From assembly GCA_963743635.1 (NCBI GenBank), contig CAVUQO010000003.1, positions 736,001-800,000 of the forward strand: a DNA stretch of 64,000 nucleotides, read 5' to 3'. Each line of letters opens with the position of its first letter. Within the stretch, counting starts at the first letter, position 1. The translations under genes and the position numbers were made by a program. This stretch comes from Candidatus Babeliales bacterium. Its GTDB lineage: Bacteria; Babelota; Babeliae; Babelales; Vermiphilaceae. The notes under the pieces were generated by a model. That model was not told the origin of the DNA. It saw nothing but the letters and a program-made list of their open reading frames with translations, and ran no database searches. Positions 6,306 through 64,000 of this stretch are shown here, piece after piece.

Positions 6306-6410
6306 ACATGCGGCAATAAATCTTGTGATTTGATGTAGAAATATGGCAGACTGGATAAAAATGCAAGAAGAGAGATATCTTGGATGGATAATCCTAAAAG
6401 GGGATGTGGG

Positions 6411-8096
6411 ATGAAGAAAGTAATAGTGAGTATAATCTTGGTTGTGGGCTTGACAGGGATCTGTGGTTGGCAATTATTGGCTGTGACCATGCGGGTGATT
6501 GGCGTGCCGCGGCCGTCGGCTGTATCAGGGGAAATTGGGTATATTAATGAAACGGTGGATTTGGATGATGAAGATGTCATGACTTTAGAGACATTTTCAG
6601 ATTTAATAGCGCAAAAGCAAAGATTGAATCTTCCCTATGTTATTGCGCGCGTTGAAAATCCTGGTGGCTTTCATCGTTATTATGATGCGGAGGCATTGAA
6701 TCGTCAGTTGTTTGGAGCTCCGCAAGGTACACCATTGACGGATATTTATCGCGTTCCAATAGAGAGGCTTGATTATTTTATTAAGGATCCTGCTCGGAAT
6801 GAATTTAGGTATATGGAATCGTTTCATGTGGCTGAGCTTAGTGCCAAGAGGGCAGCAATGCATACACGTCTTGGTATGATGTATTATAAAGGTGAAGGAG
6901 TTGCTCGAGATTATGCTAGGGCACGTAATTACTTTGAGCAAGTAATAGCCAATGTGGATCAGCCTGTCTATAGCGTGTATGCGCACCGTGTCAATAGGGC
7001 GTATGCACATACACGTCTTGGTGAGATGTACTATAATGGTGAAGGAGTTGATCGAGATTATGCTAGGGCGCGTGGTCACTATGAGCAAGTAATAGCTGAG
7101 AATGTATCTGATCCCAATAGGCCGTTCGATATACGTGTACTAGTTGATGCGAGTGGGTCTGATCCCAATAGGTCGTTAGCGCAGATACGTCTTGGTGAGA
7201 TCTACTATAATGGTTTAGGAGTTGATCGAGATTATGCTAGGGCGCGTGCTTACTATGAGCAAGCAATAGGTAATACTCGTTCGCCTGGTGTCAATAGGGC
7301 GATGGCGCAGGCGCGTCTTGGTGACATCTATTATAAGGGTGAAGGGGTTGCCCGAGATTATGCTAGGGCACGTGCTTACTTTGAGCAATTAATAGCCAAT
7401 GCGGATGCGTCTGCTCGCAATAGGGCGTATGCGCATACACGTCTTGGTGACATGTATTATAAAGGTGAAGGGGTTGCTCGAGATTATGCTAGGGCACGTG
7501 ATTACTATGAGCAAGTAATAGCTAATGCGAATGCGCAGGGTGTCAATAGGGCGTATGCGCATACACGTCTTGGTGACATGTATTATAAAGGTGAAGGAGT
7601 TGCTCGAGATTATGCTAGGGCACGTGATTACTATGAGCAAGTAATAGCCAATGCGAATGCAAGTGGTGCCGATAGGGCGGTAGCGCAGGTACGTCTTGGT
7701 GACATGTATTATAAAGGTGAAGGAATTGCTCAAGATTATGCTAGGGCACGGGATTACTATGAGCAACTAATAGCTAATGCGAATGTAAGTGGTGCCGATA
7801 GGGCGGTAGCGCAGGTACGTCTTGGTGACATGTATTATAAAGGTGAAGGAATTGCTCAAGATTATGCTAGGGCACGTGATTACTATGAGCAAGTAATAGC
7901 TAATGCGAATGCAAGTGGCGCCGATAGGGCGGTAGCGCAGGTACGTCTTGGTGACATGTATTATAATGGTGAAGGAATTGCTCAAGATTATGATAGGGCA
8001 CGTGATTACTATGAGCAAGTAATAGCTAATCCAGACATAACTTCTCAAGACAAGCAGAATGTGCAAATGCGTCTTGATTCAATGGTTCGCGAATAA
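6411..8096 (+). CDS. Secreted Sel1-like repeat protein, 9 repeats
   Basis: Signal peptide MKKVIVSIILVVGL; repeats RLGDMYYKGEGVARDYARARDYYEQ with a 126-bp period in the 3' part. Confidence 0.9.
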   Translation: MKKVIVSIILVVGLTGICGWQLLAVTMRVIGVPRPSAVSGEIGYINETVDLDDEDVMTLETFSDLIAQKQRLNLPYVIARVENPGGFHRYYDAEALNRQLFGAPQGTPLTDIYRVPIERLDYFIKDPARNEFRYMESFHVAELSAKRAAMHTRLGMMYYKGEGVARDYARARNYFEQVIANVDQPVYSVYAHRVNRAYAHTRLGEMYYNGEGVDRDYARARGHYEQVIAENVSDPNRPFDIRVLVDASGSDPNRSLAQIRLGEIYYNGLGVDRDYARARAYYEQAIGNTRSPGVNRAMAQARLGDIYYKGEGVARDYARARAYFEQLIANADASARNRAYAHTRLGDMYYKGEGVARDYARARDYYEQVIANANAQGVNRAYAHTRLGDMYYKGEGVARDYARARDYYEQVIANANASGADRAVAQVRLGDMYYKGEGIAQDYARARDYYEQLIANANVSGADRAVAQVRLGDMYYKGEGIAQDYARARDYYEQVIANANASGADRAVAQVRLGDMYYNGEGIAQDYDRARDYYEQVIANPDITSQDKQNVQMRLDSMVRE

Positions 8097-10134: not shown

Positions 10135-12010
<1,876 letters not shown>

Positions 12011-43251: not shown

Positions 43252-44774
43252 ATGAAATATATCTTAAGAACAATGTGCGTCCTCGCTGTATACGTCAATC
43301 ATGCTCATGCCATGGGTCCTACTTTGGTGGAATTGCATAGTGCTATTTTGGCAGAATTGGATAATGATTATTATCAGATTGTTAAGAGCAGTCGCAATCA
43401 CGATGGAGCACCTGCTACCCAAGAACTGGCACGCGTTCGTTTTTCTCTTGAAGTATTGGGCACCGCAATTAGCAATTTGCAAAGCGAAAGCGATAGCGAT
43501 AATCGGCAGCGTCTTGCAAAAAAAATTGCACTCTTATCTATTTCAGATGATGCTTTAAAAGCATTGCATGAAAATCCCTCGAATCATCCGGCATTAACGA
43601 TTACGCCTTCATTAAAAAATGAAATCTATCCTCATACGCGGCATGCATATGCGATGCGTCAGATCATTCCACATGATAAGCATATTGATGCGGCAGTACT
43701 TTCACCCAATGATGCTCTGATAGCGACTATTTCGAATAACCACAATGGAACATGCGGTTATTTGCGAATTTTAAGACCGCTACCGGAGAAGAGATGCGCA
43801 CAATGTGTTATCAATACGATGGTCAAAATTTATGGTACGGTCCTCGAGCAGTTGCATTTCATCCCGATAACACAAATGTAATGATCATAGATTCTGAAGA
43901 TTCAGCAGCTCTCGTTGATGCAGAATCTGGCGTTAAGAGAACGCTGGATTATCTACAGAACGTCGATAAAGTGGCATTCTCACCCGATAGCAGCACGATT
44001 GCAGCTGCATTGAGAGATGGTTCAGTATCACTACATAGTTTGACAAACACGGCACTTGCCCATGCAAGTCAAATCACGCATCAAGGCGCTGTTAAATCGG
44101 TAGCTTTCTCAGCAAACGGCAAACTATTAGCCACCGCATCAAATGACACGACCGCAAAAGTTCTTGATCTTGAGCACAATACATCATTTGAAGTTCAACA
44201 CGATGAATGCGTTAATTCAGCAGCATTATCATCAGATAATACTATGCTTGCAACTGCATCTGATGATTGTTCGGTGAAGGTATTTGATCTTAACACTCAT
44301 GAGCTAATTCTTCATATTAAGCTTGCTACTGCTGCCCGCGGTGTGGCATTCGTACCTCATAAACGAGAACTACTCATACAAAGCGACAAAACCATAAAGG
44401 TGTGTGATATCGATACGGGTGTGCGACGATATCAAGTCAAACACAATCTTTTCCTGCACACTGCAGCGATTTCGACTGACGGTAGCACAATAGTGACTGC
44501 CTCACACCATGGTAATGGAAACGTGGTTGATACTCAGTCAGGCAATATCTTACATCGCATCACATATCGTGGATGGTTTAAAGTAGCTGCAGTTTCACAA
44601 ACGGGTGATACAATAATCACTGCTCCAGGCATGTATACAGGGCCCCTGACTATTACTGAACGATTGACTCGGTTAGCCAACACCTTTGATCAGGCACTCC
44701 TTAAGAAATATTTAGACTGGTGCAAACAAAGCGGGGCCGAACCAAATCAATCAGTCAAAACAGCATTAGAGTAA
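43252..44774 (+). CDS. Secreted WD40 repeat protein, split by a frameshift near 43770
   Basis: Signal peptide in the first ORF; divergent WD40 repeats (SVAFSANGKLLATASNDTTAKV) in the overlapping second ORF. Confidence 0.75.
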
Positions 44775-49958: not shown

Positions 49959-51350
49959 TCAACTATAATAGTCTTCTTCAATATCCTGGAATTTTGTATA
50001 TTCACGCTCAAAGTTTAGATAAACCGTACCGGTTGGACCATTACGTTGTTTACCAATAATAAGTTCGGACAACGCCGGATTTTCTGCTTCAGGATTGTAC
50101 ACAATATCACGGTATAAAAACATAATAAGATCCGCATCTTGCTCAATCGCACCAGATTCTCGTAAATCAGAAAGCATCGGCCGTTTATCCATACGGCTAT
50201 CAACCGCACGTGAAAGCTGTGAAAGTGCCAGAATTGGAACTTGCAATTCTTTTGCAAGCGCTTTTAATGAACGTGAAATCTCAGATACTTCTTGGTGCCT
50301 GTTTTCATGGCTTCGATTGGTATGAATGAAGCTGCAGATAATCAATCACTAAAAATTGAAAGTTTGCTCAGTTTTAAGCTTGCGTGCTTTGCGCGCGTAA
50401 ATCCATAATGAAATGCCATGGCAGTATCATCGATAAATAATTTATAGTCCGCAAGTTGTGCAGCTACATTAGTGAGCTCAACCCATTCATCGGAAGTGAT
50501 GGTTGCATTACGAATATTATGATGGGCAATACCCGACTGTGATGAAAGCAACCGCAGTGGTCAACTGTTCGGCGGACATTTCAAGGGAAAAAAATCCAAC
50601 AGATAGCCATGCAGTGCGGCATTATTCACCAAATGAAATGCAAGTGCGGTTTTACCCATAGAAGGTCGCGCAGCCAATACAACAAATCACCTTTTTGAAA
50701 ACCAGAAGTCATCGAATCAAGTTTTTTATATCCAGATGGGAACCCCAGTAATACCTTTACTATGGCTCTTGATATCGGAAAGATGCTTAAATGTTTTTTT
50801 GAGCCAAATATTCAGCTGCACAAAGATTTGCTGTGCGCGCTTATTGGATATTTTAAAAATTGCTTGTTCTGCTTGATCCAAGATAGCATCAAGCTCTTTT
50901 TCACTCTGATTATAACAATCACCAATAATTTGCGTAGCCGAATTAATCAGCTCACGCAAAATTGCTTTTTCTTTAATAATTCTTGCATGTTGTTCAATCA
51001 ATCCAATAGCAGGAAGATCTTCTTGTAAAGAAACGAGATACAATATGCCGCCCACATCTTCAAGTTGATTACGTTTAATAAGTTCATCTTGTAGTGTCAG
51101 CAAGTCAATACGCTTACGTTGATGATGTAAATCAACCATCGCGGCGTAAATGTAAGTATTGTGTTGATTATAAAAATCAGTGGGAATTAAGATCTCAGAA
51201 ACGAGCGTGATGTGTTCATCATTGAGCAGCAATGCTCCCAATACTGCTCGCTCCGCTTCAATGCTCGAAGGAAGACTTTTTCCGACCAGTTGTTCGGCGC
51301 TTGGAGTAGGAGGTTGTTGATATCGCGCGAGTAAGTCTTTCCTTCGGCAT
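49959..51350 (-). CDS. dnaB: Replicative helicase DnaB, several frameshifts (start approximate)
   Basis: [40 protein letters not shown] and KQRNGPTG in successive frames. Confidence 0.93.
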
Positions 51351-51409
51351 GCAAAATCCTTTTTATGATAAGATTCACCTTAATTACGTGCGGTTCCGCA
51401 TGTATAATA

Positions 51410-51937: not shown

Positions 51938-53290
51938 CTATCTTATGAGCGGCCATACGTCGCCATCGCGGGAGCAGTAGATTGCCTCCCGGTGTGCCAC
52001 GTAGATAATGTCCTGCCTGCGGGCAATGGCCCCATATTGAGCAGCCAATCGCATGAGTTGTTTCAAGGAGTTCCCTGCAAACCAAGTTTCATTTACCAAA
52101 AGCAATAAGGGTATTTCCAATTTTTGCGGTTCATCATACCAATCCAAATAATAATCCGAACAGATTGCTGGTATAAAAATGGTCTCTACGGCTTCTGATG
52201 AAAGTGAATAATCGCCGTAGAAAAAATCGCCCTTCTTCCTGTTAACGTTCATTATTATTTTATTATGGAGGAAAATCCGATTAATCCCCGCGAAGTTTAA
52301 CCAGTAATTAGGTATATATTCCGCAAAAGGCATCAGTATCGATTTGTCGTAACCTCGAATTATCAGACGATTATGGATATAATAACAAGAATTGTAAAAG
52401 CACCCGTTTTCTTTTCGATGGGCTCCTAAAATCACGGTCAGATCGTCGTTAACGATGTTTTGCGCGAGCGCTTCGTGAATTTCCGGATGCATGTTTAGTG
52501 TGATTTTAAGCGTTGATTCGGGCATTACAATGTGCGTTATGTGCGGATGCCTGGCGATGAGTGCGTTACAACACACTGCCAACTCCCCTGCCCGCTCAAG
52601 GAGATCGTCAGATAATCCCGCTGGAGACACATATCCTATTGTTTCATAATGGATGGGCGGCTCACTTTTTTCGCACACAAAAAAACCGAATATAAACGGA
52701 AGATAGAGCGCGACAGCAAGTCTTAATCGATATTTATGGTACCCACCCCATGCTGCCGCCATGCCCCAACTTGCGGTTATGAGCATGAGTAGCAGAATGT
52801 GCGGATGGAGATAGGATAACGTAAAAAGTGTTTGTGGATATGCGGCGAGTGGAATAAGCGGGAAACTAAATGGGTATCCCTGCACCCTACCAAGCATCCA
52901 AAATGAAAATCGCTGCATGCAAATTATGTAAAGCCAGGTTGAACCAATCCAACTCAGGATCGGTTTTTTGGTTGTAATACTTAAAAGAGACGCGCCCCAG
53001 AACCATATCCCTGCATAGAATGCGCTGCAAATGACTAAAAAAGGCATAACCGCATAGCGCGCGATGCCATGGCCCTGTGCATGCGCAAATAGTGCGATAT
53101 CATACCAATGCAGTGCATACACAATCATTCCCCATAGGAATCCATCATAGAAAGAAAGATTCCCCTTGCGCATGATTGCGCAATAAAAAAGGGGAATAAG
53201 ATAAAGAAAGATGCAAAAAAAGAAGAGCATGGGCAGCGAGAGAGCGCTATAAAAAAGAAGCGCCGATAGACAAACAGGCCTAAACTGCAT
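51938..53290 (-). CDS. lnt: Apolipoprotein N-acyltransferase-like protein
   Basis: N-terminal TMs, GYPF, MPES, YDKSILMPFAEYIP, AIC. Confidence 0.75.
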   Translation of the reverse strand: MQFRPVCLSALLFYSALSLPMLFFFCIFLYLIPLFYCAIMRKGNLSFYDGFLWGMIVYALHWYDIALFAHAQGHGIARYAVMPFLVICSAFYAGIWFWGASLLSITTKKPILSWIGSTWLYIICMQRFSFWMLGRVQGYPFSFPLIPLAAYPQTLFTLSYLHPHILLLMLITASWGMAAAWGGYHKYRLRLAVALYLPFIFGFFVCEKSEPPIHYETIGYVSPAGLSDDLLERAGELAVCCNALIARHPHITHIVMPESTLKITLNMHPEIHEALAQNIVNDDLTVILGAHRKENGCFYNSCYYIHNRLIIRGYDKSILMPFAEYIPNYWLNFAGINRIFLHNKIIMNVNRKKGDFFYGDYSLSSEAVETIFIPAICSDYYLDWYDEPQKLEIPLLLLVNETWFAGNSLKQLMRLAAQYGAIARRQDIIYVAHREAIYCSRDGDVWPLIR

Positions 53291-53747
53291 CTCTTTTCCA
53301 CGCTGAAATCATATAGAGTTCTTCAGGCATAAGACTCTGCGGATTTATGATCTGTTTTTCAAGGCAACAGGAGAAGGATACCTGTTTAACGTCTTTTTCG
53401 TACAACGTCGCCGTAATTTTAAAAAGTCCATCATACTGAATGTCGATGACACCTCGGGCAAAAATGCCTCCACCCAAAGGCCACTGATTAAACATTAATG
53501 CCTCCTGCCCTGATTGCTTTTCAAGCACCGTTGAAAGCAATGTATACTGCTTTTTACAGATGCCGATCCCGTACCACAGCAACGCCTCTGCTGCATATTG
53601 TTTTTTGACGTATTCCATGCGAAGTGCCGTAATTTCACGAAGCGATTCTTGCGCCTTCCATTGCATGACCATAATAAGCGTGAAGATGCTGATAAAGAAA
53701 ATACAGGTAAGTACCATTGAGCCAGATTTATGCCGTAATGGGATCAT
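53280..53747 (-). CDS. Minor pseudopilin, PilX/GspK-like
   Basis: RHKSG|SMVL plus hydrophobic stretch, YAAEA; coupled to two prepilin genes. Confidence 0.55.
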   Translation of the reverse strand: MIPLRHKSGSMVLTCIFFISIFTLIMVMQWKAQESLREITALRMEYVKKQYAAEALLWYGIGICKKQYTLLSTVLEKQSGQEALMFNQWPLGGGIFARGVIDIQYDGLFKITATLYEKDVKQVSFSCCLEKQIINPQSLMPEELYMISAWKRDAV

Positions 53748-54367
53748 AAAATCCTACCATTTCGTATGCGCACATACCGCGATGATTGCGCACTGCCTTC
53801 CAAAGAAAGCGTTGATGTTATGCCCTGCACCCTCTTTTCATCAGCCTGAATTTGGCATGAAAATGCATCTACCCCGGATGCAACGACACTCGCATGATGC
53901 TTACCCCATTGCTGCGTTTGCGTGTTATAGCTGCCCTCTTTACGCACAAGTTGTTTATTCGTGTGATGCCAACCAATGGCCTTCCCATCAGACCCCTGCC
54001 ATATGATATGATCTTTTGCTATCGCAAGCCAAGCGGATCGATCGCTTGGCGCTGGCTGTAAATCACGCACAATCACATCATGCACCAAGACGCCCGTAAG
54101 CGCCCTATCAGTTGACTGTACCGTCCGGCCAGCCTCCAATACGGTTTGGGTAATCCATCGCATAAGGGTCATCATCAATATCGCGCAAATAACCATATAC
54201 ACGCAACATTCAATGAGTAAAAATCCATTCTTTCTATTTCGCGAAATAGAACCCGACGAAGCAAAACACTTCGAGGAGTAGAAACTTCGAAGTAAAAGCG
54301 AAGCCTGGGTCACATTAATTCTGCGCGATACAACGGGTTTTAACCCGCTTAGTGCTTCGTTATCCAT
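53744..54367 (-). CDS. Prepilin-type protein (PilW/GspJ-like) with extended leader
   Basis: RKNG|FLLIE class III cleavage motif; ATG directly follows the upstream TAA. Confidence 0.75.
   Translation of the reverse strand: MDNEALSGLKPVVSRRINVTQASLLLRSFYSSKCFASSGSISRNRKNGFLLIECCVYMVICAILMMTLMRWITQTVLEAGRTVQSTDRALTGVLVHDVIVRDLQPAPSDRSAWLAIAKDHIIWQGSDGKAIGWHHTNKQLVRKEGSYNTQTQQWGKHHASVVASGVDAFSCQIQADEKRVQGITSTLSLEGSAQSSRYVRIRNGRIL
54251..54310. repeat. REP-like family B element inserted in frame in the prepilin leader
   Basis: 60 bp, acccgacgaagc...gcgaagcctgggt; translates as TQASLLLRSFYSSKCFASSG. Confidence 0.8.
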
Positions 54368-54721
54368 TTATCCCCCCGTAATCGCCGATACCGTATGGGT
54401 TCCGGTCGCATCATCATTCCATGATACGATAACTTCAATGCACGATGGAGATGGTAATTCGACACCCGATATCAAAGCCAACGAACCGCCCGGGTGGGCA
54501 ATGGGTATGATTTTTTTTGAGACAGAATAGCATTCAGATTCAGGACTTTTGTCTATTTGCTGTTCAATAAGTGTCATCATGATTGAAACCGCTTTACCCT
54601 GCTGAACCGCTTTTTTATAGCTGCGGGACCACTGGCCATAATGATGGATTATTGCTCCAACGAGCACTGAAAGTAAGGTGCAGGCTAGTAACGCTTCAAG
54701 TAAGAAGAAACCCTTTTTCAT
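54368..54721 (-). CDS. Prepilin-type protein (PilV/GspI-like)
   Basis: MKKG|FFLLEALLA; C-terminal IEVIVSW. Confidence 0.8.
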   Translation of the reverse strand: MKKGFFLLEALLACTLLSVLVGAIIHHYGQWSRSYKKAVQQGKAVSIMMTLIEQQIDKSPESECYSVSKKIIPIAHPGGSLALISGVELPSPSCIEVIVSWNDDATGTHTVSAITGG

Positions 54722-54851: not shown

Positions 54852-56630
54852 ATGCACGCTAAAAACACATTTCGTCACCTACTTTTAGCCATTCTGAGCG
54901 TCACCGCACTCTGTTTTAACCTATCATATGCTGGTGCGCCAAACATGATGTTCAATCCGCCGAGCATGGAAGAAATTGAAGCGCAAATTGATGAATTTGT
55001 GCGCAGTTTACCGCCTGAACAACAAAAACAATTTTATAAAGACGTTGAAGAATTAACCGGCATCATGGAAAAAATGTCTCCTGATGAGCTTAGCGAATTT
55101 GTCGGCAGCGTATTTACTGAGGCAGGACTTATTGAGCCTGGTCCAGCACCAATGCCGCAACCCGAAGCTAAAAAGGTTGAACCGACGGTGGTCAAAGAGG
55201 CAAAGCCAGGAGCAGTAATTACTACCGCGCCAAGTGGCCCAACTGAAACCGCCATTAATATGCTCAAAACAATTATCGCGCGCACACAAGAATTCATGCG
55301 TAAGGCGCTTATGATTCCGGAACTTCCTGGCACTATGGATAAATGGGTCAGACAAGAAAAGTTACGTGAAATACCAACGAGCAAAGTAAACTGGAAAACC
55401 CTCGATTGGTCGACGGTGGAAAAACAGATTGATGATTTTAGCAATCTGTTACATAAACTCCAAGAAGTCGATGATAAAACAGGTCAATATCGCCACATCG
55501 GCAATCTGATCAAGGATGTAGCGCTCTATAGCAATCTAAATGCATTAGAAGTAATCCTGACGAATTTCGTACCCGATATTAAGGTCCCTGATTTTGGTCT
55601 TGATAAAACATCAGAGCCTTCGCTCAAAGCTATTCGCCAAGTGCTCAATCAATATCTTGAATCATTCCATTTATTGAATGTGCCAACCTCAATTGAAAAT
55701 GTATTGAAGCTTTATGAACCGCGCGCGAAAGAACTGAGCGAAGAAGAAGCTGCTTTAGTAAAAAAAGCAAAAGAAGAAGCTCAAAAACCTCGCGTCTCTA
55801 CCCCTGGCGTCAAAACACCGGGCACTAAGGCACCTTCTACAGGCTATGAACCCTCATATGGTTATGGTGATTATTATGGTGGTGATTACGGATATATGCC
55901 ATCATACTCGCCTCATGACTATTTCGGTCCATCATCTGATTACGGCCCAACACCATCTACCGGCGGCGGCACATTCGGTGCTGGTAAAGGGGCTGGTGCA
56001 GGAGCTGGAAAACCTGGTGAAGCCAAAAAAGAAGAAAAAGAAGGCGGCAAAGAAGGCAAAGAAGGTGCAAAAAAAGAAGAAGGTAAACCTGGAGCTAAAA
56101 AAGATGAAGTTAAAAAAGAAAGCGACACCGATCGCAAACTTTGGAAACTACAAGATAAAATAGAAGCAGTTATCGATTCATTAAAAGCATTCGATGTCGT
56201 ATTCACCAAATTTAAGGATCAGTTTGCCACTGGTTTTGATAAAACATTCATCGATACGAAGCTGCAAGATTTAGTGCTCGCTATACAAACAGCAGATAAG
56301 GAAATTAAGAAATCTATCGAAGATATCAAGGCGTTCAAAAAGAGCCTTGATAAGATGAACAAACCAACTCAAGATTATTATAAAAAGGAATTGACTAAAG
56401 CATTTAAAGACTCAGTCAAATTTCTTGAAACCCTTGAGACGGATATTAAAACCATTGAAGAAAAAGCAGGATCTCCATTCAGAAGCGAATTGAACAAGGA
56501 TAAACTATATGTTTATTTTGGCGAAGGCACTGGATCTGCTGACGTAGTTGCCAAATTACCTACACCTCCTGTGGTCACCATGAAAAATCTTGCAGAAACT
56601 ATCAGGAAGCTTAAAGACGCAGCAAAGTAA
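54852..56630 (+). CDS. Large secreted hypothetical protein with low-complexity linker
   Basis: AGGAGG RBS, signal peptide ending SYA, Tyr/Gly-rich and Lys/Glu-rich tracts. Confidence 0.8.
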   Translation: MHAKNTFRHLLLAILSVTALCFNLSYAGAPNMMFNPPSMEEIEAQIDEFVRSLPPEQQKQFYKDVEELTGIMEKMSPDELSEFVGSVFTEAGLIEPGPAPMPQPEAKKVEPTVVKEAKPGAVITTAPSGPTETAINMLKTIIARTQEFMRKALMIPELPGTMDKWVRQEKLREIPTSKVNWKTLDWSTVEKQIDDFSNLLHKLQEVDDKTGQYRHIGNLIKDVALYSNLNALEVILTNFVPDIKVPDFGLDKTSEPSLKAIRQVLNQYLESFHLLNVPTSIENVLKLYEPRAKELSEEEAALVKKAKEEAQKPRVSTPGVKTPGTKAPSTGYEPSYGYGDYYGGDYGYMPSYSPHDYFGPSSDYGPTPSTGGGTFGAGKGAGAGAGKPGEAKKEEKEGGKEGKEGAKKEEGKPGAKKDEVKKESDTDRKLWKLQDKIEAVIDSLKAFDVVFTKFKDQFATGFDKTFIDTKLQDLVLAIQTADKEIKKSIEDIKAFKKSLDKMNKPTQDYYKKELTKAFKDSVKFLETLETDIKTIEEKAGSPFRSELNKDKLYVYFGEGTGSADVVAKLPTPPVVTMKNLAETIRKLKDAAK

Positions 56631-57393: not shown

Positions 57394-58857
57394 TTAGATA
57401 GTTATTTTTTTATGCGGCGTCGTTAAAAATGAGGTAAATTGCCATTCATCTTCCGGCTCGATAACGTTGTCCGTGTAATCGATAAATGTTTTTTTGATGC
57501 TAAGCGGAGACCATTCAACAGGTTGAGAAATAAAGGTGCCAAGATATGGTTTTGCAAACGTTAATATTTCTTTGTGATTAAGATCGTCAGGTAAACAAAT
57601 GCCTTCTTCTGGATGATTCATGAGATATTGAGTCGCCGCAGCTATCGAAATCGCAACTTGCACCGTTGTTGCACTCTGATTGGGCACTAATGTGCGCGCT
57701 TGATGAATATCTAATACACTGCCAATCCACCATGATTTAAAATCATGCCCCATAAGCAGACAACCAAGTTCATCTGCACCGTCAAGAATATCATCACTTA
57801 AGATACGCAGATTTGGTTGCATTTCTAATTGTCTCATTTTCAATTCATATAATGAGCTCAAGGTAGAATCTGAAACACAATACGCATAATGCACGGTCGG
57901 CCGATAGATTGCTTTATCACCCTGCCACACCGTCAGGCGATCAGAAATTCCAAATGCTTCTCCATGTCGAATAACCATGCCAATAATTTCACCGCTCGGC
58001 ACCCAAGAACGCACATGCGTATCCATACCTTTTGTTTGAAGACACACTTGATTCTGAGGACCCTCTTTGTGAAACATGATGCCTTCGGGTGCGAACTTTT
58101 CATGCGTACCCCATCCTAATTCTGAGGGAGCTATCCCCTCTTCATAAAGCCCTGGTATGCTCCAGGTATTTACAAATTCATTCACCTTTTTAGGAGCACT
58201 TGTGATTTGGGAATCTCGTTCGGAAATATGTATGGTTTTTACGCCGAGCAGGTGCGCAAGTTGGGCAAAATTTTTTTGAGCTAAATACTTTTCCAATTCT
58301 TTACTGCGGGGACTTTTCGGATCCTTTGCAATTACTGCCTGCGCAATATCTTCGAGCGCTTGTTTGGTAAAATGAGAAACAAGACCAGGATTAGCGCCGT
58401 GATCTAAAATCGCCGTTGCTCCTTTCTTATCCCAACTATTCATCAGTTTGCGCAATGCCATTTGGCGAGCGTAAAGTGTAAGCTCTCGAGGATCTTTTCG
58501 CTGCGCACCATGATAGGCATCCCATAATTCTATTGAGCTGTTAAGGTAACGAACGTTATGATCATGACACCACTGCAACAATGCGCAGGTATCCATTTCC
58601 CATCCAAGATCAATAAAAATATCCCCTGGCGACAAATACTTCTTGAGTATGGCAGCATAGTTTTCAGGAGTAATGCGCTCTTGAATATAGGTAATGCCCT
58701 TTTTTAAAAGATCCGCGATGCGCGATCGATTATCAGTAAAATCCATTACGGTAATACGCGATGGATCTATGTTAAGCTCTTTGATCAAAAGCGGTAAAGC
58801 GCACTGGGAAACGGCACCACACCCCACCACAAAAATACGTCCACGAAATGCTTCCAT
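57394..58857 (-). CDS. hss: Homospermidine synthase
   Basis: VVGCGAVSQ, HGANPGLVSHF, EFVNTWS, ELGWGTHE, YRPTVHYAY, GADELG. Confidence 0.92.
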   Translation of the reverse strand: MEAFRGRIFVVGCGAVSQCALPLLIKELNIDPSRITVMDFTDNRSRIADLLKKGITYIQERITPENYAAILKKYLSPGDIFIDLGWEMDTCALLQWCHDHNVRYLNSSIELWDAYHGAQRKDPRELTLYARQMALRKLMNSWDKKGATAILDHGANPGLVSHFTKQALEDIAQAVIAKDPKSPRSKELEKYLAQKNFAQLAHLLGVKTIHISERDSQITSAPKKVNEFVNTWSIPGLYEEGIAPSELGWGTHEKFAPEGIMFHKEGPQNQVCLQTKGMDTHVRSWVPSGEIIGMVIRHGEAFGISDRLTVWQGDKAIYRPTVHYAYCVSDSTLSSLYELKMRQLEMQPNLRILSDDILDGADELGCLLMGHDFKSWWIGSVLDIHQARTLVPNQSATTVQVAISIAAATQYLMNHPEEGICLPDDLNHKEILTFAKPYLGTFISQPVEWSPLSIKKTFIDYTDNVIEPEDEWQFTSFLTTPHKKITI

Positions 58858-59120
58858 TACAAAAACCTCCTTTTAATGTTCATGACGATCCGACTATACC
58901 AAAAAAAGATCCTCAATTACGAAGGTCTTTCTCTGAAAAGGATAAAAAAGTCTAGGATATTGTATTCTAAGGCACTTCAAGACCTTGAAAAACTTGAAAA
59001 TGAACTCAAACACCTTGAATGAAAATATAAGAATTTAAAAGACCCTCAATTGCGAGGGTCTTTTGCGTATCATGAATAAGCCATGTTAGTTAGAAGATTA
59101 GACATCTCTATCCTGAAGCA

Positions 59121-60251
59121 TCATTCCGGAAACATATTTTCTAATGCCTTCTTATAACGATGCTCCGCAAGCGCTTGCGTGATCCATTCATCTTCATTGC
59201 ATGCGTATCCCTTTTTGCGGCACCATCTCAAATAGTGCACCGCAAGTGGATTTTCAACGGTTAAACACGCATGAATACGCGCAAGGCCATCATGTGATCC
59301 CGTTGCAAGCAGTTCACCATCAGGCGAAAATGCCACTGACCAAACCCAATCACCATGCTTAATGGTATGCAACACTGCACCCGTAGTAGCCTTGATTATC
59401 CGTGCATTATTATCACCTGATCCCGTTGCAAGCAGTGCACCATTAGGCGAAAATGCCACTGAAATAACCCAATCACCATGCTTAATGGTATGTAACACCG
59501 CACCCGTAGCAGCTTCGATTATCCGTGCATTCTTATCACCTGATCCCGTTGCAAGCAGTTCACCATCAGGCGAAAATGCCACTGAACAAACCCAATCACC
59601 ATGCTTAATTTTATGTAACACTGCACCCGTAGTAGCATTGATTATCCGTGCATTATTATCACCTGATCCCGTTGCAAGCAGTTCACTATTGGGCGAAAAT
59701 GCCACTGAATAAACCGAACCATAATGCTCAATAGTTTTGAAACGACCCCATATCTGAGGCATATACTCATCAATCATCTGCCTTGATGCTTCAGAAAGCG
59801 AAAGTGCTGGATGCTGCGCAGCATCTTCATGCAACGACCGCATTGACTCATCAGACACCAACCTTTTTGCCATTGCGCTCGCATATTTTTTTGTTGATAT
59901 CGATGCGCCTAAATATATCGCTCCATCAAGCAAGGGCTTGGCACTCTCAATGCTCAAAGAATTATCATCATTCGCTTGCGCATCATCAGCATCACGCACC
60001 AATCGCTTTAAAATTGCAGCGGAAATACATCCCAACGGAATCGGTTCACTTTGCGCCGCGTAATCAATCGCGCCATCCGCTGTTTTTGAGAATGCGTCCT
60101 CCACGACATCTTTAATCGTTCCGAACAACGGCACTTTACTTGCATCAAGCATTACCGTTTCATTATCATTGCTCTTCACTGCAAGCTGCATCGCCTGCAG
60201 ATTACTCATTGAAAGTCCCAGCACAGCCATCAATATCACTATTCGTTTCAT
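59121..60251 (-). CDS. Secreted Skp1-like/WD40 protein, array copy with 4 repeats
   Basis: Signal peptide MKRIVILMAVLGL; KSND...TIKDVVED...PIPLGCISAAILKRL; 123-bp repeats. Confidence 0.88.
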   Translation of the reverse strand: MKRIVILMAVLGLSMSNLQAMQLAVKSNDNETVMLDASKVPLFGTIKDVVEDAFSKTADGAIDYAAQSEPIPLGCISAAILKRLVRDADDAQANDDNSLSIESAKPLLDGAIYLGASISTKKYASAMAKRLVSDESMRSLHEDAAQHPALSLSEASRQMIDEYMPQIWGRFKTIEHYGSVYSVAFSPNSELLATGSGDNNARIINATTGAVLHKIKHGDWVCSVAFSPDGELLATGSGDKNARIIEAATGAVLHTIKHGDWVISVAFSPNGALLATGSGDNNARIIKATTGAVLHTIKHGDWVWSVAFSPDGELLATGSHDGLARIHACLTVENPLAVHYLRWCRKKGYACNEDEWITQALAEHRYKKALENMFPE

Positions 60252-60310
60252 ATTCTTTTTTCGATTACAAGGATATATAATTTTTTTTACCGTATTCAAC
60301 ATGAATCTTC

Positions 60311-61927
60311 TCATTCAAGAATCATATTTTCTAGTGCCTTCTTATAACGATGCTCCGCAAGCGCTTGCGTGATCCATTCATCTTCATTGCATGCGTATCC
60401 CTTTTTGCGGCACCATCTCAAATAGTGCACCGCAAGCGGATTTTCAACGGTTAAACACGCATGAATTTGCGCAAGGCCATCATGTGATCCCGTTGCAAGC
60501 AGTTCACCATCAGGCGAAAATGCCACTGAACAAACACAATGATCATGCTTAATTTTATGTAACACTGCACCCGTAGTAGCCTTGATTATCCGTGCATTCT
60601 TATCATATGATCCCGTTGCCAGCAGTGAACCATCAGGCGAAAATGCCACTGAACGAACCCAATCACCATGCTTAATGGTATGTAACACTGCACCCGTAGT
60701 AGCATTGATTATCCGTGCATTATCATCACTTGATCCCGTTGCCAGCAGTGAACCATCAGGCGAAAATGCCACTGAACGAACCCAATCACCATGCTTAATG
60801 GTATGTAACACTGCACCCGTAGTAGCGTTGATTGTCCGTGTATTCTTATCATCTGATCCCGTTGCCAGCAGTTCACTATTAGGCGAAAATGCCACTGAAC
60901 AAACATAATCACCATGCTTAATGGTATGTAACACTGCACCTGTAGCAGCTTCGATTATCCGTGCATTCTCATCACCTGATCCCGTTGCCAGCAATTGACT
61001 GTCAGGCGAAAATGCCACTGACCGAACACAATCACCATGCTCAATTTTATGTAACACTGCACCCGTAGTAGCCTTGATTATCCGTGCATTATTATCACCT
61101 GATCCCGTTGCAAGCAGTTCACCATTAGGCGAAAATGCCACTGAGCGAACCCAATAACCATGCTTAATAGCATGCAACACTGCACCCGTGGTAGCGTTGA
61201 TTATCCGTGCACTATTATCATCTGATCCCGTTGCCAGCAGTTCACTATTAGGTGAAAATACCACTGAGCGAACCCAATCACCATGCTCAATTTTATGTAA
61301 CACTTCATAGGTAGTAGCGTTGATTATCCGTGCATGACCTGATCCCGTTGCAAGCAGTTCACCATCAGGCGAAAATGCCATTGACAACACACAATTATCA
61401 TGCTTAATGGTGTTCAAAGTACCCCATATTTGAGGCATGTACTTACAAACTACCTGCTTTGATGCTTCAGAAAGCGAAAATGCTGGATGATCTTTTGTAT
61501 TGTCATGCAACGACCGCATTGACTGATCCGATACCAACCTTTTTGCCATTATGCTCGCATATTTTTTTGTTGATATCGATGCGCCTAAATATATCGCTCC
61601 ATCAAGAAAGGGCTTTGCTCTCTCAATGGTTAAAGAATTATCATCATTCATTTGCGCATCATCAGTATCACGCATCAATCGCTTTAAAACTTCAGATGAG
61701 ATATACCGCAGCGGAATCGGTTCTTTTTGTGCTCCGTAATCAACCGCGCCATCCGCTGTTTTTAGGAATGCGTTCTCCACGACATCTTTAATCATTCCGA
61801 ACAACGGCACTTTGCTTGCATCAAGCATTACCACCTGCCCATCATTGCTCTTCAATGCCAGCTGCATCGCCTGCAGATTACTCATCGAAAGTCCCAGCAC
61901 AACCATCAATATCACTATTCGTTTCAT
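60311..61927 (-). CDS. Secreted Skp1-like/WD40 protein, array copy with 8 repeats
   Basis: Same architecture; 8 SxxFSP..LLATGS repeats. Confidence 0.88.
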   Translation of the reverse strand: MKRIVILMVVLGLSMSNLQAMQLALKSNDGQVVMLDASKVPLFGMIKDVVENAFLKTADGAVDYGAQKEPIPLRYISSEVLKRLMRDTDDAQMNDDNSLTIERAKPFLDGAIYLGASISTKKYASIMAKRLVSDQSMRSLHDNTKDHPAFSLSEASKQVVCKYMPQIWGTLNTIKHDNCVLSMAFSPDGELLATGSGHARIINATTYEVLHKIEHGDWVRSVVFSPNSELLATGSDDNSARIINATTGAVLHAIKHGYWVRSVAFSPNGELLATGSGDNNARIIKATTGAVLHKIEHGDCVRSVAFSPDSQLLATGSGDENARIIEAATGAVLHTIKHGDYVCSVAFSPNSELLATGSDDKNTRTINATTGAVLHTIKHGDWVRSVAFSPDGSLLATGSSDDNARIINATTGAVLHTIKHGDWVRSVAFSPDGSLLATGSYDKNARIIKATTGAVLHKIKHDHCVCSVAFSPDGELLATGSHDGLAQIHACLTVENPLAVHYLRWCRKKGYACNEDEWITQALAEHRYKKALENMILE

Positions 61928-61962
61928 ATTCTTTTTTCGATTACAAGGATATATAAATTTTT

Positions 61963-63486
61963 TTACAGTATTGAACATGAATCTTCTCGTTCAAGAATCA
62001 TATTTTCTAATGCCTTCTTATAACGATGCTCCGCAAGCTCCTGCGCGATCCATCCCTCTCTTTTGCATGCGTATCCCTTTTTGCGGCACCATCTCAAATA
62101 GTGCACCGCAAGCGGATTTTCAACGGTTAAACACGCACAAATCCGTGCATTCTTATCATCTGATGCCGTTGCAAGCAGTTCCCCATCAGGCGAAAATGCC
62201 ACTGAACGAACCCAATCACCATGCTTAATGGTATGCAACACTGCACCCGTAGTAGCCTTGATTATCCGTGCATTATTATCATTTGATCCCGTTGCAAGCA
62301 GTGCACTATCAGGCGAAAATGCCACTGATAAAACCGTCCCACCATGCTTAATCGTCTGCAACACCGCACCCGTAGCAGCCTTGATTATCCGTGCATTATC
62401 ATCCCGTGATCCGGTTGCCAGCAGTTCACCATCACCCGAAAATGCCACTGACCGAACCCAATTATCATGCTTAATGATATGTAACACTTCACCCGTAGCA
62501 GCTTTGATTATCCGTGCATTATCATCACTTGATCCCGTTGCCAGCAGTGAACCATCAGGCGAAAATGCCACTGAACGAACCCAATCACCATGCTTAATGG
62601 TATGTAACACTGCACCCGTAGTAGCGTTGATTGTCCGTGTATTCTTATCAACTGATCCCGTTGCAAGCAGTTCACCATCAGGCGAAAATGCCACTGAAAT
62701 AACCCAATCACCATGCTTAATGGTATGTAACACCGCACCCGTAGCAGCTTCGATTATCCGTGCATTCTTATCACCTGATCCCGTTGCAAGCAGTTCACCA
62801 TCAGGCGAAAATGCCACTGAACAAACCCAATCACCATGCTTAATTTTATGTAACACTGCACCCGTAGTAGCATTGATTATCCGTGCATTATTATCACCTG
62901 ATCCCGTTGCAAGCAGTTCACTATTGGGCGAAAATGCCACTGAATAAATATAATTATCATGCTTAATAGTGTTCAAAGTACCCCATATCTGAGGCATATA
63001 CTTACAAACTATCTGCTTTGATGCTTCAGAAAGCGAAAATGCTGGATGATCTTTTGTATTGGCATGCAATTGACGCATTGACTCATTAGACACAAAAAAC
63101 TTTGCCATTGCGCTCGCATATTTTTTTGTTGATATCGATGCGCCTAAATATATCGCTCCATCAAGCAAGGGCTTGGCACTCTCAATGGTTAAAGAATTAT
63201 CATCATTCGTTTGCGCATCATCGGCATCGCGCACCAATCGCTTTAAAATTGCAGCGGAAACACATCCCAACGGAATCGGTTCACTTTGCGCCGCGTAATC
63301 CACCGCGCCATCCGCTGTTTTTGGGAATGCATCTTCAACCACATCTTTAATCGTTCCGAACAACGGCACTTTGATTGCATCAAGCATTACCACCTGCCCA
63401 TCATTGCTCTTCAATGCCAGCTGCATCGCCTGCAGATTACTCATTGAAAGTCCCAGCCCCACCATCAACATCACTATTCGTTTCAT
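61963..63486 (-). CDS. Secreted Skp1-like/WD40 protein, array copy with 7 repeats
   Basis: Same architecture; TGA->CGA change extends the C-terminus by 8 aa. Confidence 0.88.
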   Translation of the reverse strand: MKRIVMLMVGLGLSMSNLQAMQLALKSNDGQVVMLDAIKVPLFGTIKDVVEDAFPKTADGAVDYAAQSEPIPLGCVSAAILKRLVRDADDAQTNDDNSLTIESAKPLLDGAIYLGASISTKKYASAMAKFFVSNESMRQLHANTKDHPAFSLSEASKQIVCKYMPQIWGTLNTIKHDNYIYSVAFSPNSELLATGSGDNNARIINATTGAVLHKIKHGDWVCSVAFSPDGELLATGSGDKNARIIEAATGAVLHTIKHGDWVISVAFSPDGELLATGSVDKNTRTINATTGAVLHTIKHGDWVRSVAFSPDGSLLATGSSDDNARIIKAATGEVLHIIKHDNWVRSVAFSGDGELLATGSRDDNARIIKAATGAVLQTIKHGGTVLSVAFSPDSALLATGSNDNNARIIKATTGAVLHTIKHGDWVRSVAFSPDGELLATASDDKNARICACLTVENPLAVHYLRWCRKKGYACKREGWIAQELAEHRYKKALENMILEREDSCSIL

Positions 63487-63543
63487 ATTCTTTTTTCGAT
63501 TATAGAAATATAAATTTTTTTGCCGTATTGAACATGAATCTTC

Positions 63544-64000
63544 TCATTCAAGAATCATATTTTCTAGTGCCTTCTTATAACGATGCTCCGCAAGCGCTTG
63601 CGAGATCCATTCATCTTCATTGCATGCGTATCCCTTTTTGCGGCACCATCTCAAATAGTGCACCGCGAGCGGATTTTCAACGGTTAAACATGCATAAATC
63701 CGTGCATTATTATCATCTGATCCCGTTGCAAGCAGTTCACTATTGGGCGAAAATGCCACTGAACGAACCCAATCACCATGCTTAATGGTATGTAACACTG
63801 CACCCGTAGTAGCCTTGATTATCCGTGCATTCTTATCATCTGATCCCGTTGCAAGCAGTTCACCATCAGGCGAAAATGCCACTGAAATAACCCAATCACC
63901 ATGCTTAATTTCATGTAACACTGCACCCGTAGTAGCCTTGATTATCCGTGCATTCTTATCATCTGATCCCGTTGCAAGCAGTTCACCATCAGGCGAAAAT
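63544..64000 (-). CDS. Fourth array copy, 5' part outside the window
   Basis: At least 3 WD40 repeats visible and the same C-terminus LAVHYLRWCRKKG. Confidence 0.85.
   Translation of the reverse strand, partial: FSPDGELLATGSDDKNARIIKATTGAVLHEIKHGDWVISVAFSPDGELLATGSDDKNARIIKATTGAVLHTIKHGDWVRSVAFSPNSELLATGSDDNNARIYACLTVENPLAVHYLRWCRKKGYACNEDEWISQALAEHRYKKALENMILE

Follow-up and report, generated by a model that had tools for sequence, protein, structure and literature searches.

Tandem genes for putatively exported Skp1-like/WD40 proteins in a Dependentiae genome: candidate one-chain receptors of a host cullin-RING ligase

Introduction

Pathogens and symbionts hijack host ubiquitination through F-box, U-box, RING-like and BTB-box effectors, and to our knowledge none of these works without either host adaptors or a Cul3-type BTB. 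Can a bacterium instead copy the adaptor Skp1 itself, and join it to a substrate receptor in one chain? The question is raised by a group of genes near the end of a bacterial window of 64,000 nucleotides (the whole stretch of DNA analyzed here), which a first-pass annotation had read as Skp1-like/WD40 fusions.

Results

Array layout and relatives

A minus-strand tandem array of three complete paralogs and one paralog truncated by the window end occupied 59121-64000. The copies followed one plan, in which a signal-peptide-like N-terminus precedes a domain of ~150 aa (the N-domain), near-identical WD40 blades of 41 aa and a conserved helical tail. The minus-strand ORFs were listed as 59121-60314 (397 aa), 60311-61978 (555 aa) and 61963-63486 (507 aa), with a 5'-open fragment at 63544-63999; the ORFs of copies 1 and 2 started 21 and 17 codons upstream of MKRIV, which was taken as the real start because the relatives P0003 and P0007 begin at MKRI.

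61963-63486, minus strand: copy 3, complete gene encoding 507 aa; signal-peptide-like N-terminus, Skp1-like domain, seven WD40 blades, tail and CaaX box
60311-61927, minus strand: copy 2, complete gene from the conserved MKRIV start; eight WD40 blades, TGA end, no CaaX box
59121-60251, minus strand: copy 1, complete gene from the MKRIV start; four WD40 blades only, ending in ENMFPE, no CaaX box
63544-64000, minus strand: copy 4, 3' part only, open at its 5' end; WD40 blades and tail, TGA end
59037-59064, minus strand: terminator-like hairpin 3' of copy 1, at the array end; the sole one found in 58800-64000

ORFs and Pfam matches both agreed with the annotation's description of three complete copies sharing an N-terminus and a motif string followed by four to eight WD40 repeats. 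Judged by the N-domain dN/dS among them (0.36-0.66), the array copies are maintained as coding sequence. Frame breaks were abundant in the assembly, with dnaK and dnaB each in at least four pieces, and details of a single copy may therefore be errors. Two more paralogs were located on the plus strand, each split over two ORFs.

15807-17653, plus strand: paralog locus B (ORFs 15807-17063 and 17027-17653); signal-peptide-like N-terminus, Skp1-like domain in diverged form, WD40 blades, FNALL..W tail, no CaaX box
43252-44771, plus strand: paralog locus C (ORFs 43252-43881 and 43740-44771); signal-peptide-like N-terminus, N-domain represented by its C-terminal half, WD40-like blades, FDQALLKKYLDWC tail, no CaaX box

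RecA was 77% identical to that of Vermiphilus pyriformis and 74-79% identical to those of six MAGs, and on this protein the genome is placed in Dependentiae, near Vermiphilus. The family was very small, with 8 credible matches among 1.84 billion representatives; relatives outside the window were assumed to be of bacterial origin. The array paralogs probably form a small, lineage-restricted effector family of this amoeba-parasite-type member of Dependentiae (Babeliales, Vermiphilus-like).

Putative export signal

The array N-terminus, MKRIV(M/I)LM..LGLSMSNLQA followed by MQLA, had a basic start, a hydrophobic core of 12 aa (Kyte-Doolittle mean 2.4-3.0) and an end site of small residues. Inspection and hydropathy suggest a Sec-type signal peptide, and a segment of this kind was common to all copies and relatives.

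63427-63486, minus strand: signal-peptide-like N-terminus of copy 3 (MKRIVMLMVGLGLSMSNLQA), from inspection and hydropathy only
61868-61927, minus strand: signal-peptide-like N-terminus of copy 2, counterpart of the copy 3 segment
60192-60251, minus strand: signal-peptide-like N-terminus of copy 1, counterpart of the copy 3 segment

Dependentiae have been reported to export many eukaryote-like proteins that bear signal peptides; in Chromulinavorax, signal peptides were found on 44% of CDS and on 78% of ankyrin proteins (PMC6561590). Type II secretion genes are described as conserved in Dependentiae (PMC4776705).

The N-domain is related to Skp1

62977-63426, minus strand: Skp1-like domain of copy 3, with a length of 150 aa; a BTB/POZ core, then an acidic loop, then further C-terminal helices to YMPQIW
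61418-61867, minus strand: Skp1-like domain of copy 2, from Pfam and N-domain comparison
59742-60191, minus strand: Skp1-like domain of copy 1, from Pfam and N-domain comparison

The three N-domains showed 83% identity to copy 3 as the reference, and the Skp1-like motif string quoted in the annotation was found in all three complete copies. When the N-domains were searched in isolation, Skp1_POZ (PF03931) was the sole Pfam match (E 0.016, 0.024 and 0.15). The scores of the window copies (15.8, 15.3 and 12.7 bits) lay below the curated cut-off of 21.9 bits; matches at E<=10 were obtained for five of eight family members, and none of the eight reached the cut-off (best 16.3 bits, E 0.0027). No match to PF00651 (BTB) or BACK was found by Pfam at E<=10 in the N-domains or the eight members.

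Single sequences searched against the PDB with phmmer matched only Skp1 (12 of 12 matches, E 0.076-0.2). When the alignment of eight family members (A3) was used as a profile against the PDB, Skp1 was again best (E=1.2e-7), the alignment pairing profile positions 1-117 with residues 1-126 of Skp1. Every one of the 22 matches at E<=1e-3 was Skp1; the 38 distinct sequences at E<=10 comprised 25 Skp1 or SKP1-like proteins, 11 Elongin C (E 0.0055 or worse) and 2 unrelated proteins, with no BTB-ZF, Kelch or T1 chain among them. The closest ESM Atlas clusters were Skp1 or Elongin C (score 0.94, 179 of 256 features in common), and one neighbor cluster was mostly Nucleocytoviricota. In the A3 profile, a conserved Met after the putative signal peptide was aligned with Met1 of Skp1. 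The domain was retained down to 27% identity in A3, where conservation was strongest in the C-terminal half, the site of the invariant residues Y103, A104, S113, H127, P128, Y143 and W148.

The AlphaFold2 model of the N-domain, built from a 10-row alignment of family members only and without templates, had a pLDDT of 89.1 and a pTM of 0.82. Foldseek returned 54 PDB matches at E<=1e-3, and among the matches listed (45 of 54) all were in entries containing Skp1 or ASK1 (best E 3.9e-5, probability 1.00). Superposition on 1fs1_B gave a TM score of 0.79 and an rmsd of 2.7 over 126 columns. The predicted fold is of the Skp1 type, a BTB core with extra C-terminal helices. Its sole low-confidence stretch, the acidic loop at residues 71-80, coincided with the position at which Skp1 has a disordered low-complexity insertion (PMC1257465). 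Among viral models, giant-virus Skp1 proteins ranked first (Pithovirus, Pandoravirus and Cedratvirus; E 2.4e-4 to 4.9e-4), ahead of the BTB-kelch models of poxviruses and giant viruses.

The N-domain is almost certainly a homologue of Skp1 across the whole BTB/POZ core. The annotation had matched Skp1 motifs in the same order, and phmmer, the A3 profile, the Atlas and the model with its Foldseek matches concurred. Its proposed structure prediction of the domain alone gave the same answer, Skp1 chains leading the listed PDB matches. The profile match that it had proposed to look for was borne out by Skp1_POZ as the sole Pfam hit and by the A3 search; it fell short at the Pfam cut-off and for PF01466 and PF00651.

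Cullin-contact and F-box-binding features

In Skp1, the 'PxPN' motif of strand B3 contacts Cul1 (PMC1257465). Opposite the PLPN of Skp1, the A3 rows read PLGC, PLRY, PLGC, PLRN, PVSR, LLKN, PLMH and VLSR. The Cul1-contact residues that the annotation had named as a check were therefore only partly kept: the first P was present in six of eight rows, the N in two and the second P in none. The C-terminal, F-box-binding Pfam domain of Skp1 (PF01466) was absent at E<=10 in all eight members, and the HMM alignment of A3 stopped at Skp1 residue 126; helices predicted beyond this point are candidate equivalents of alpha7 and alpha8.

ORFs, Pfam, the profile and the model together placed an adaptor fold and a beta-propeller receptor in one polypeptide. 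On sequence and model, a one-chain cullin-ligase component is plausible; productive docking of the array proteins on a cullin is possible but somewhat doubtful.

WD40 propeller

Pfam found 4, 8 and 7 WD40 stretches in copies 1, 2 and 3 (E 2e-36, 1.5e-65 and 3.3e-60; PF00400 scores of 123, 215 and 198 bits, all above the cut-off of 27) and 3 in the partial copy 4. Direct counting of 41-aa units gave 4, 8, 7 and 2 blades in copies 1 to 4, and TRF detected a 123-nt period with 86-95% matches.

62141-62967, minus strand: WD40 array of copy 3; 123-nt units, TRF 6.7 copies, seven blades
60479-61411, minus strand: WD40 array of copy 2; TRF 7.6 copies, eight blades
59295-59715, minus strand: WD40 array of copy 1; TRF 3.4 copies, four blades

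The four blades of copy 1 are too few for the usual closed propeller. In 21 aligned blades, 9 positions were invariant and positions 23, 7, 25 and 31 were the most variable (entropy 2.1-2.5 bits); position 7 (R/C/I/Y/L/W) agrees with the protruding site that PMC3419727 calls 'R1'. A gap of only ~6 residues separated the end of the N-domain from the first blade.

C-terminal tail and CaaX box

61966-62124, minus strand: conserved C-terminal tail of copy 3 (VENPLAVHYLRWCRKKG...GW...), no family recognized
60314-60448, 59124-59258 and 63547-63681, minus strand: counterparts of this tail in the other array copies
61966-61977, minus strand: C-terminal CaaX box of copy 3, CSIL, with TAA next at 61963-61965
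61987-61989, minus strand: CGA (Arg) codon of copy 3, at the site of the TGA stop in copies 1, 2 and 4
60311-60313, 63544-63546 and 59121-59123, minus strand: TGA stops of copies 2, 4 and 1, equivalent to the CGA of copy 3

Pfam recognized no family in three array tails or in the tails of loci B and C, a tail profile gave eight PDB matches with no F-box chain among them, and an ESM Atlas search with the tail gave no usable match.

Copies 1, 2 and 4 ended eight codons before copy 3. In them TGA stood in place of the CGA of copy 3, which takes away the CaaX end; TGA was an ordinary stop in the window, ending 5 of 25 other genes. The box was absent from three of four array copies and from both other paralogs. 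Three of the four distant relatives with a tail ended in such a box (P0003 CTIS, P0009 CVIQ, P0010 CIIM), and the array proteins appear to have carried it ancestrally. In the window, C-x-[ILVM]-x ends occurred in 3 of 668 stop-to-stop ORFs and in one of 58 ORFs of at least 150 aa, which was copy 3. Both the CaaX box and the host association of the taxon suggest action in the cytosol of a eukaryotic host.

Discussion

Proposed function and rival explanations

The array proteins are likely to be host-directed effectors, and they probably serve to hijack host protein degradation. The best explanation overall, to which we give slightly less than an even chance, is that the proteins leave the bacterium and each serve a host cullin-RING ligase as a substrate receptor in one chain. 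They would be exported by Sec and then reach the amoeba cytosol through the type II system or the vesicles reported for Dependentiae, where host prenyltransferases may lipidate the copies that retain a CaaX box. The Skp1-like module would replace the adaptor on the N-terminal domain of the cullin, and the WD40 propeller would recruit host proteins for ubiquitination.

Instead of building a productive ligase, the Skp1-like module might capture host cullin or F-box proteins, by sequestering them or by membrane tethering via the CaaX anchor, so that SCF is blocked and not redirected; we consider this unlikely. Homology to Skp1 would be equally expected of such a decoy, the most conserved C-terminal half of the N-domain lies at the position of the F-box-binding part of Skp1 (PMC1257465, PMC4403949), and the divergence of 'PxPN' would fit a loss of normal Cul1 docking. 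However, a large propeller that varies at few blade positions would be needless in a decoy, and since PF01466 was unmatched, F-box binding is supported no better than cullin binding. The poor conservation of the Cul1-contact motif also suits a BTB-fold module that serves only for self-association or as a rigid neck of the propeller, in a protein that binds its host or bacterial target for reasons unrelated to ubiquitination. Several modes of self-association are described for the versatile BTB fold (PMC1257465), and with only ~6 residues between it and the first blade, the N-domain may pack against propeller and tail. Such a role is nevertheless improbable, as the domain is specifically Skp1-like and not a generic BTB (E=1.2e-7 against 0.0055 or worse for Elongin C), the listed Foldseek PDB matches (45 of 54) all came from Skp1-containing entries, and the CaaX box and host-associated taxon indicate the host cytosol.

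Beta-propellers are common in the periplasm. A propeller protein of the bacterial periplasm or outer membrane, with its Skp1 likeness a remnant of a captured gene, would accord with the signal-peptide-like N-terminus of all copies and relatives and with low-scoring NCBIfam matches to propellers of the TolB and YncE types. The scores of these matches were far under their cut-offs, a CaaX box (copy 3 and three of four relatives with a tail) would be useless in a bacterial periplasm, and the Skp1-like domain was kept to 27% identity with dN/dS below 1, all of which makes an envelope role very improbable.

Within the one-chain receptor reading, a bolder version can be stated: the family would be the first among bacterial effectors to descend from Skp1 itself. 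In it, adaptor and receptor would plug into the host cullin, bypassing host Skp1 and F-box; the conserved tail would occupy the groove normally filled by the F-box; a host-added lipid anchor would put the rogue ligase on a membrane; and a protist or giant virus would be the donor of the gene, whose original start Met would still show behind the added signal peptide. As a joint claim, this is rather unlikely to hold in full. A Skp1-derived module with its own propeller would be a different solution to hijacking, with adaptor and receptor copied in one chain. If cullin is bound, the array would offer a compact natural single-chain cullin-RING substrate receptor, a handle on the control of protist hosts by the poorly known Dependentiae, and a case of gene capture from eukaryote or virus to bacterium with a visible 'fossil' start codon. 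Within this one array a few positions vary from blade to blade, and blades and CaaX ends come and go, a picture of putative effector diversification under way.

Comparison with known systems

The N-domain resembles eukaryotic Skp1 in its homologous BTB/POZ core, in its fold including the extra C-terminal helices, and in an acidic, poorly ordered loop at the equivalent place. Unlike Skp1, the array proteins lie in a bacterial genome and add a putative signal peptide, a WD40 propeller of their own, a tail and a CaaX box, while their N-domain is below the Pfam cut-off, is without PF01466 and keeps 'PxPN' only partly. Skp1 with an F-box/WD40 receptor (Cdc4, Fbw7, beta-TrCP) is the two-chain counterpart (PMC1257465); the array proteins differ from this pair in having no recognizable F-box and in their order of Skp1-like domain, propeller and tail. 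In BTB proteins a single chain serves as adaptor and receptor, and BTB binds Cul3 through an interface structurally analogous to that of Skp1 with Cul1 (PMC4403949). BTB-Kelch adaptors of Cul3 (KLHL, Keap1 and poxvirus BTB-kelch) likewise have a BTB-fold adaptor and a beta-propeller in one chain (PMC4403949), whereas the array N-domain is of the Skp1 type and not a dimeric long-form BTB, does not match PF00651, and is joined to a WD40 propeller.

Among bacterial effectors, Legionella AnkB is similar in coming from an amoeba-associated bacterium and in combining a mimic of an SCF component with a repeat domain, made of ankyrin repeats in AnkB, and with a CaaX box at the C-terminus. This F-box effector is anchored through host farnesylation of its CaaX motif, and one strain has lost the CaaX end by a frameshift mutation (PMC2916131, PMC5506055). 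AnkB copies the F-box and depends on host Skp1, whereas the array proteins copy the Skp1 side itself; AnkB relies on a type IV system for delivery, whereas they carry a putative Sec signal peptide. The F-box and BTB-box families of Parachlamydiaceae are also amoeba-associated, tandemly duplicated and fast-evolving, with ubiquitin-ligase adaptor domains and repeats (PMC4209131). They differ in joining a BTB-box or F-box to LRR or TPR and in having type III secretion signals (PMC4209131). The first-pass remark that pathogen SCF mimics mostly carry F-boxes and not Skp1 is in line with the available part of that paper, in which Skp1 appears only as a host SCF component (three occurrences) with no Skp1-type domain described, the spelling 'WD40' does not occur, and WD-40 repeats are mentioned in general (PMC4209131). 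No bacterial Skp1-like effector was found in the literature searched.

Skp1 family proteins of amoeba-infecting giant viruses gave the best viral structural matches; they are viral and are without a signal peptide. Mimivirus encodes fusions of BTB and WD repeats, a combination that was not found for mimivirus in the literature searched. Bacterial BTB-box effectors have been described before, as have Skp1 and BTB proteins of giant viruses.

Tandem array and WD40 repeats

The array consists of tandem paralogs spaced 0-57 nt apart, and the only terminator-like hairpin in the array region lies 3' of the last copy, at 59064-59037.

Open reading frames of the tandem array
59121-60314, minus strand: copy 1, complete
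60311-61978, minus strand: copy 2, complete
61963-63486, minus strand: copy 3, complete
63544-63999, minus strand: copy 4, running off the window end

Each copy is made of four parts: a short N-terminus, a 150-residue domain (the N-domain), WD40 repeats and a tail of ~45 residues. The succession of N-terminus, Skp1-like domain and 4-8 WD40 repeats described in the first-pass annotation was seen in all three complete copies. The N-terminus reads MKRIV(M/I)LM..LGLSMSNLQA; its start is basic, its hydrophobic core spans 12 residues (mean hydropathy 2.4-3.0), and it was predicted by inspection to be a Sec-type signal peptide. The listed ORFs begin upstream of MKRIV by 21 codons in copy 1 and 17 codons in copy 2; MKRI was taken as the true start of both because P0003 and P0007, two relatives recovered by protein search, begin there. 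The N-domain was 83% identical between copies with a dN/dS of 0.36-0.66, and the sequences indicate that the array copies are kept under purifying selection.

Pfam found 4, 8 and 7 WD40 repeats in copies 1, 2 and 3, respectively (E 2e-36, 1.5e-65 and 3.3e-60), built of 123-nt units with an 86-95% match. When 21 blades were compared, 9 positions were invariant, and the most variable were positions 23, 7, 25 and 31 (entropy 2.1-2.5 bits). Position 7, occupied by R/C/I/Y/L/W, fits the protruding 'R1' site described for WD40 blades (PMC3419727). The blade variation would thus be a variation of the binding face on an otherwise fixed scaffold. Long open frames of up to 239 aa run antisense to the WD40 repeats on the plus strand (59362-59712, 60582-60908, 62228-62947 and 63743-64000); they share the 123-nt period of the repeats and are most likely repeat by-products, not genes.

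Relationship of the N-domain to Skp1

When the Skp1-like assignment made in the first-pass annotation was checked against Pfam and by structure, the N-domain gave a sub-threshold match to Skp1_POZ and a model matching Skp1/ASK1 entries. Skp1_POZ was the sole Pfam match of the isolated N-domains, whose scores of 15.8, 15.3 and 12.7 bits were below the cut-off of 21.9. Single N-domain sequences searched against the PDB with phmmer found 12 sequences, all of them Skp1 (E 0.076-0.2). A profile was built from an alignment (A3) of eight family members, comprising the three window copies and the N-terminal parts of relatives P0003, P0004, P0007, P0008 and P0009, with 27-46% identity to copy 3. Its best PDB match was Skp1 at E=1.2e-7, with profile positions 1-117 lying over Skp1 residues 1-126. 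All 22 matches at E<=1e-3 were Skp1, and the 38 matches at E<=10 comprised 25 Skp1/SKP1-like proteins, 11 Elongin C and 2 unrelated proteins.

An AlphaFold2 model of the N-domain, made from a 10-row alignment of family members only and with no templates, reached a pLDDT of 89.1 and a pTM of 0.82; full-length copy 3 folded from its single sequence had a pLDDT of 38.1, too low for use. Foldseek returned 54 PDB matches to the N-domain model at E<=1e-3, and all 45 matches listed of these 54 came from entries containing Skp1 or plant ASK1. Many of the chains were those named Skp1 in sequence searches (1fs1_B: TM 0.79, rmsd 2.7, 126 columns). The sole poorly predicted stretch was an acidic loop at residues 71-80 (DDAQTNDDNS), where Skp1 has a disordered low-complexity insertion (PMC1257465). 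In the ESM Atlas, the neighbours of the N-domain fell into clusters of Skp1 or Elongin C (score 0.94, 179/256 features), and giant-virus Skp1 proteins ranked first in a structure search of a viral model library. Because the profile, the AlphaFold2/Foldseek comparison, the Atlas neighbours and the viral models point to Skp1, the motif match in the first-pass annotation reflects genuine homology and not chance.

By profile and predicted fold, the N-domain is a divergent Skp1 homologue. It lies outside the Skp1 family by the Pfam cut-off, and two defining sequence features are missing. The 'PxPN' motif in strand B3 of Skp1 is said to contact Cul1 (PMC1257465). Its equivalents in the eight A3 rows were PLGC, PLRY, PLGC, PLRN, PVSR, LLKN, PLMH and VLSR, with the second P retained in none and the N in two of the eight. 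No Pfam match to PF01466, the F-box-binding part of Skp1, was found in the N-domains. Skp1 also contacts Cul1 through Asn108/Tyr109. Conservation within the N-domain is highest in the C-terminal half (Y103, A104, S113, H127, P128, Y143 and W148), which stops ~6 residues ahead of the first WD40 blade; this half and the tail may therefore make up a rigid neck.

A Met stands directly after the predicted signal-peptide cleavage site in 8/8 A3 rows (codon 63424-63426 in copy 3) and is aligned to Met1 of Skp1. This would fit the capture of a gene whose own start codon now lies behind a signal peptide added in front of it; the Met may be such a fossil start, or it may serve as an alternative one yielding a non-exported form.

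Further paralogs and relatives

When a local family HMM was run over all 668 ORFs in the six frames of the window, two additional members emerged.

Additional paralogs in the window
15807-17653, plus strand: paralog locus B, family HMM E 1.1e-6
43252-44771, plus strand: paralog locus C, family HMM E 1.8e-9

At both loci, a signal-peptide-like start is followed by a diverged Skp1-like domain, WD40-type blades and the tail motif (FNALLFEHLLLW.. and FDQALLKKYLDWC.., respectively); each is read as two ORFs in different frames, and neither has a CaaX box. The family thus occupies three loci within 64 kb, B and C being far from the array. Two more eukaryote-like repeat proteins are encoded in the window, one with ankyrin repeats (14918-15793, plus strand) immediately upstream of locus B, the other a Sel1 protein of nine repeats (6384-8096, plus strand) at a greater distance.

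Exhaustive HMMER searches with the three N-domains against 1.84 billion representative proteins gave 9 matches at E<=1e-3. P0005 (1355 aa, 10 short matched stretches) was judged on inspection to be an artefact of ankyrin-like repeats and was removed. Word-based protein searches recovered P0009, P0002 and P0004 besides the protein of the window itself, and no others, and scanning a genome contig collection with family patterns gave 33 pattern matches and no relatives. P0002 (270 aa, on a 1183-nt NCBI contig) differs from copy 2 at 1 residue over its first ~215 residues and has one WD40 blade only, followed by the tail. Either the repeat collapsed in a short-read assembly, or blades were lost naturally and left a short variant.

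C-terminal tail and CaaX box

The tail of the array copies reads VENPLAVHYLRWCRKKGYAC..(G/E)W...ALENM, and its conservation was assessed on full-length relative proteins together with the window copies. Copy 3 ends in ...ENMILEREDSCSIL, with the CaaX box CSIL at 61966-61977. Its CGA codon (61987-61989) is TGA in copies 2, 4 and 1 (60311-60313, 63544-63546 and 59121-59123, respectively), which stop eight codons before the copy 3 end, leaving the CaaX box to copy 3 alone. Past the TGA of copy 4, the frame remains open into copy 3. Reading TGA as sense was rejected because TGA terminates 5 of 25 other genes.

Three of the four distant relatives with the tail end in a CaaX box (P0003, CTIS; P0009, CVIQ; P0010, CIIM), and the fourth, P0008, has none. 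As a baseline, of the 668 stop-to-stop ORFs in the window, 3 have a C-x-[ILVM]-x end; among the 58 ORFs of at least 150 aa, copy 3 is the only one. The CaaX box is an ancestral part of the family architecture and, to our knowledge, is used solely by eukaryotic prenyltransferases.

By eye, the FDxALLxxLxxWC...GW pattern of the tail resembles the first helix of an F-box; this F-box-like reading was dropped as unsupported, not as refuted. Pfam assigned no family to the tails of the three array copies and loci B and C, a profile of six window tails gave eight weak PDB matches with no F-box chain among them, and an ESM Atlas search with the tail gave no usable match.

Proposed mechanism and comparison with known systems

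One exported-looking chain combines a Skp1-type adaptor fold with a WD40 propeller, a conserved tail and an ancestral CaaX box. We propose that the fusion protein would exit the bacterium, arrive in the host cytosol, be prenylated where the CaaX box remains, and act there as the single-chain substrate receptor for a cullin-RING ligase. In such a mechanism it would work most like a BTB-Kelch adaptor, and it would join in one chain the same parts as Skp1 plus an F-box/WD40 receptor. BTB proteins likewise unite an adaptor with a receptor, and the interface of BTB with Cul3 is analogous to that of Skp1 with Cul1 (PMC4403949). Speaking against the cullin-ligase reading are the PxPN divergence, the unmatched PF01466, the need for a route from the periplasm to the host cytosol, and copy 1 with its mere four blades. 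The protein could instead be a decoy that engages host SCF parts unproductively, or use the BTB fold as a mere scaffold. A role as a bacterial envelope protein is unlikely because of the CaaX box.

As an effector, the fusion protein resembles Legionella AnkB, which likewise joins a mimic of an SCF part to repeats and a CaaX box. AnkB is an F-box effector that is CaaX-anchored by host prenylation, and its CaaX motif was lost in one strain via a frameshift mutation (PMC2916131, PMC5506055). Expansions of bacterial F-box and BTB-box effectors are already known in Parachlamydiaceae (PMC4209131). Giant viruses encode Skp1 and BTB proteins, as seen in the viral model library. Mimivirus has BTB plus WD-repeat fusions, for which no paper was found in the literature searched. 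No bacterial Skp1-like effector was found in that literature, which covered few subscription journals; the supplements of Dependentiae papers may list such domains.

Genomic context and assembly quality

Dependentiae are parasites of protists. RecA from the window shared 77% identity with the Vermiphilus pyriformis protein, 74-79% with those of six MAGs, 63% with that of a 'Candidatus Babeliales' MAG, and at most 63% with the remainder of the 80 loci kept. The window also encodes ankyrin, Sel1 and more WD40 proteins, and this content together with RecA is consistent with Dependentiae. Very many eukaryote-like proteins with signal peptides, and Sec as the only route, have been described for this group (PMC6561590), as have conserved type II secretion genes and WD40 and F-box proteins (PMC4776705); BTB does not occur in the available text of the latter.

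Both dnaK (Hsp70; 10138-12054, minus strand) and dnaB (49962-51379, minus strand) are broken into at least four ORFs in different frames, reflecting either an indel-rich assembly or gene decay. Such frequent frame breaks in the assembly affect every feature of the window that depends on the reading frame, and the splitting of loci B and C, the blade counts and the differences at single codons are provisional until the region is re-sequenced.

A 592-aa ORF (54852-56630, plus strand) with a signal-peptide-like start and a low-complexity centre rich in Gly/Lys/Glu/Tyr matched no Pfam family. Pfam likewise gave no match for three small adjoining ORFs with hydrophobic N-termini (53280-54721, minus strand); one begins MKKGFFLLEALLAC, prepilin-like by eye, and the three may be pseudopilins of type II secretion or a type IV pilus. 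A tyrosine recombinase of the phage-integrase family (XerC/D-like; 38185-39099, plus strand) is flanked by a prolyl-tRNA synthetase gene (36237-37658) and dnaN-recF (40630-42846).
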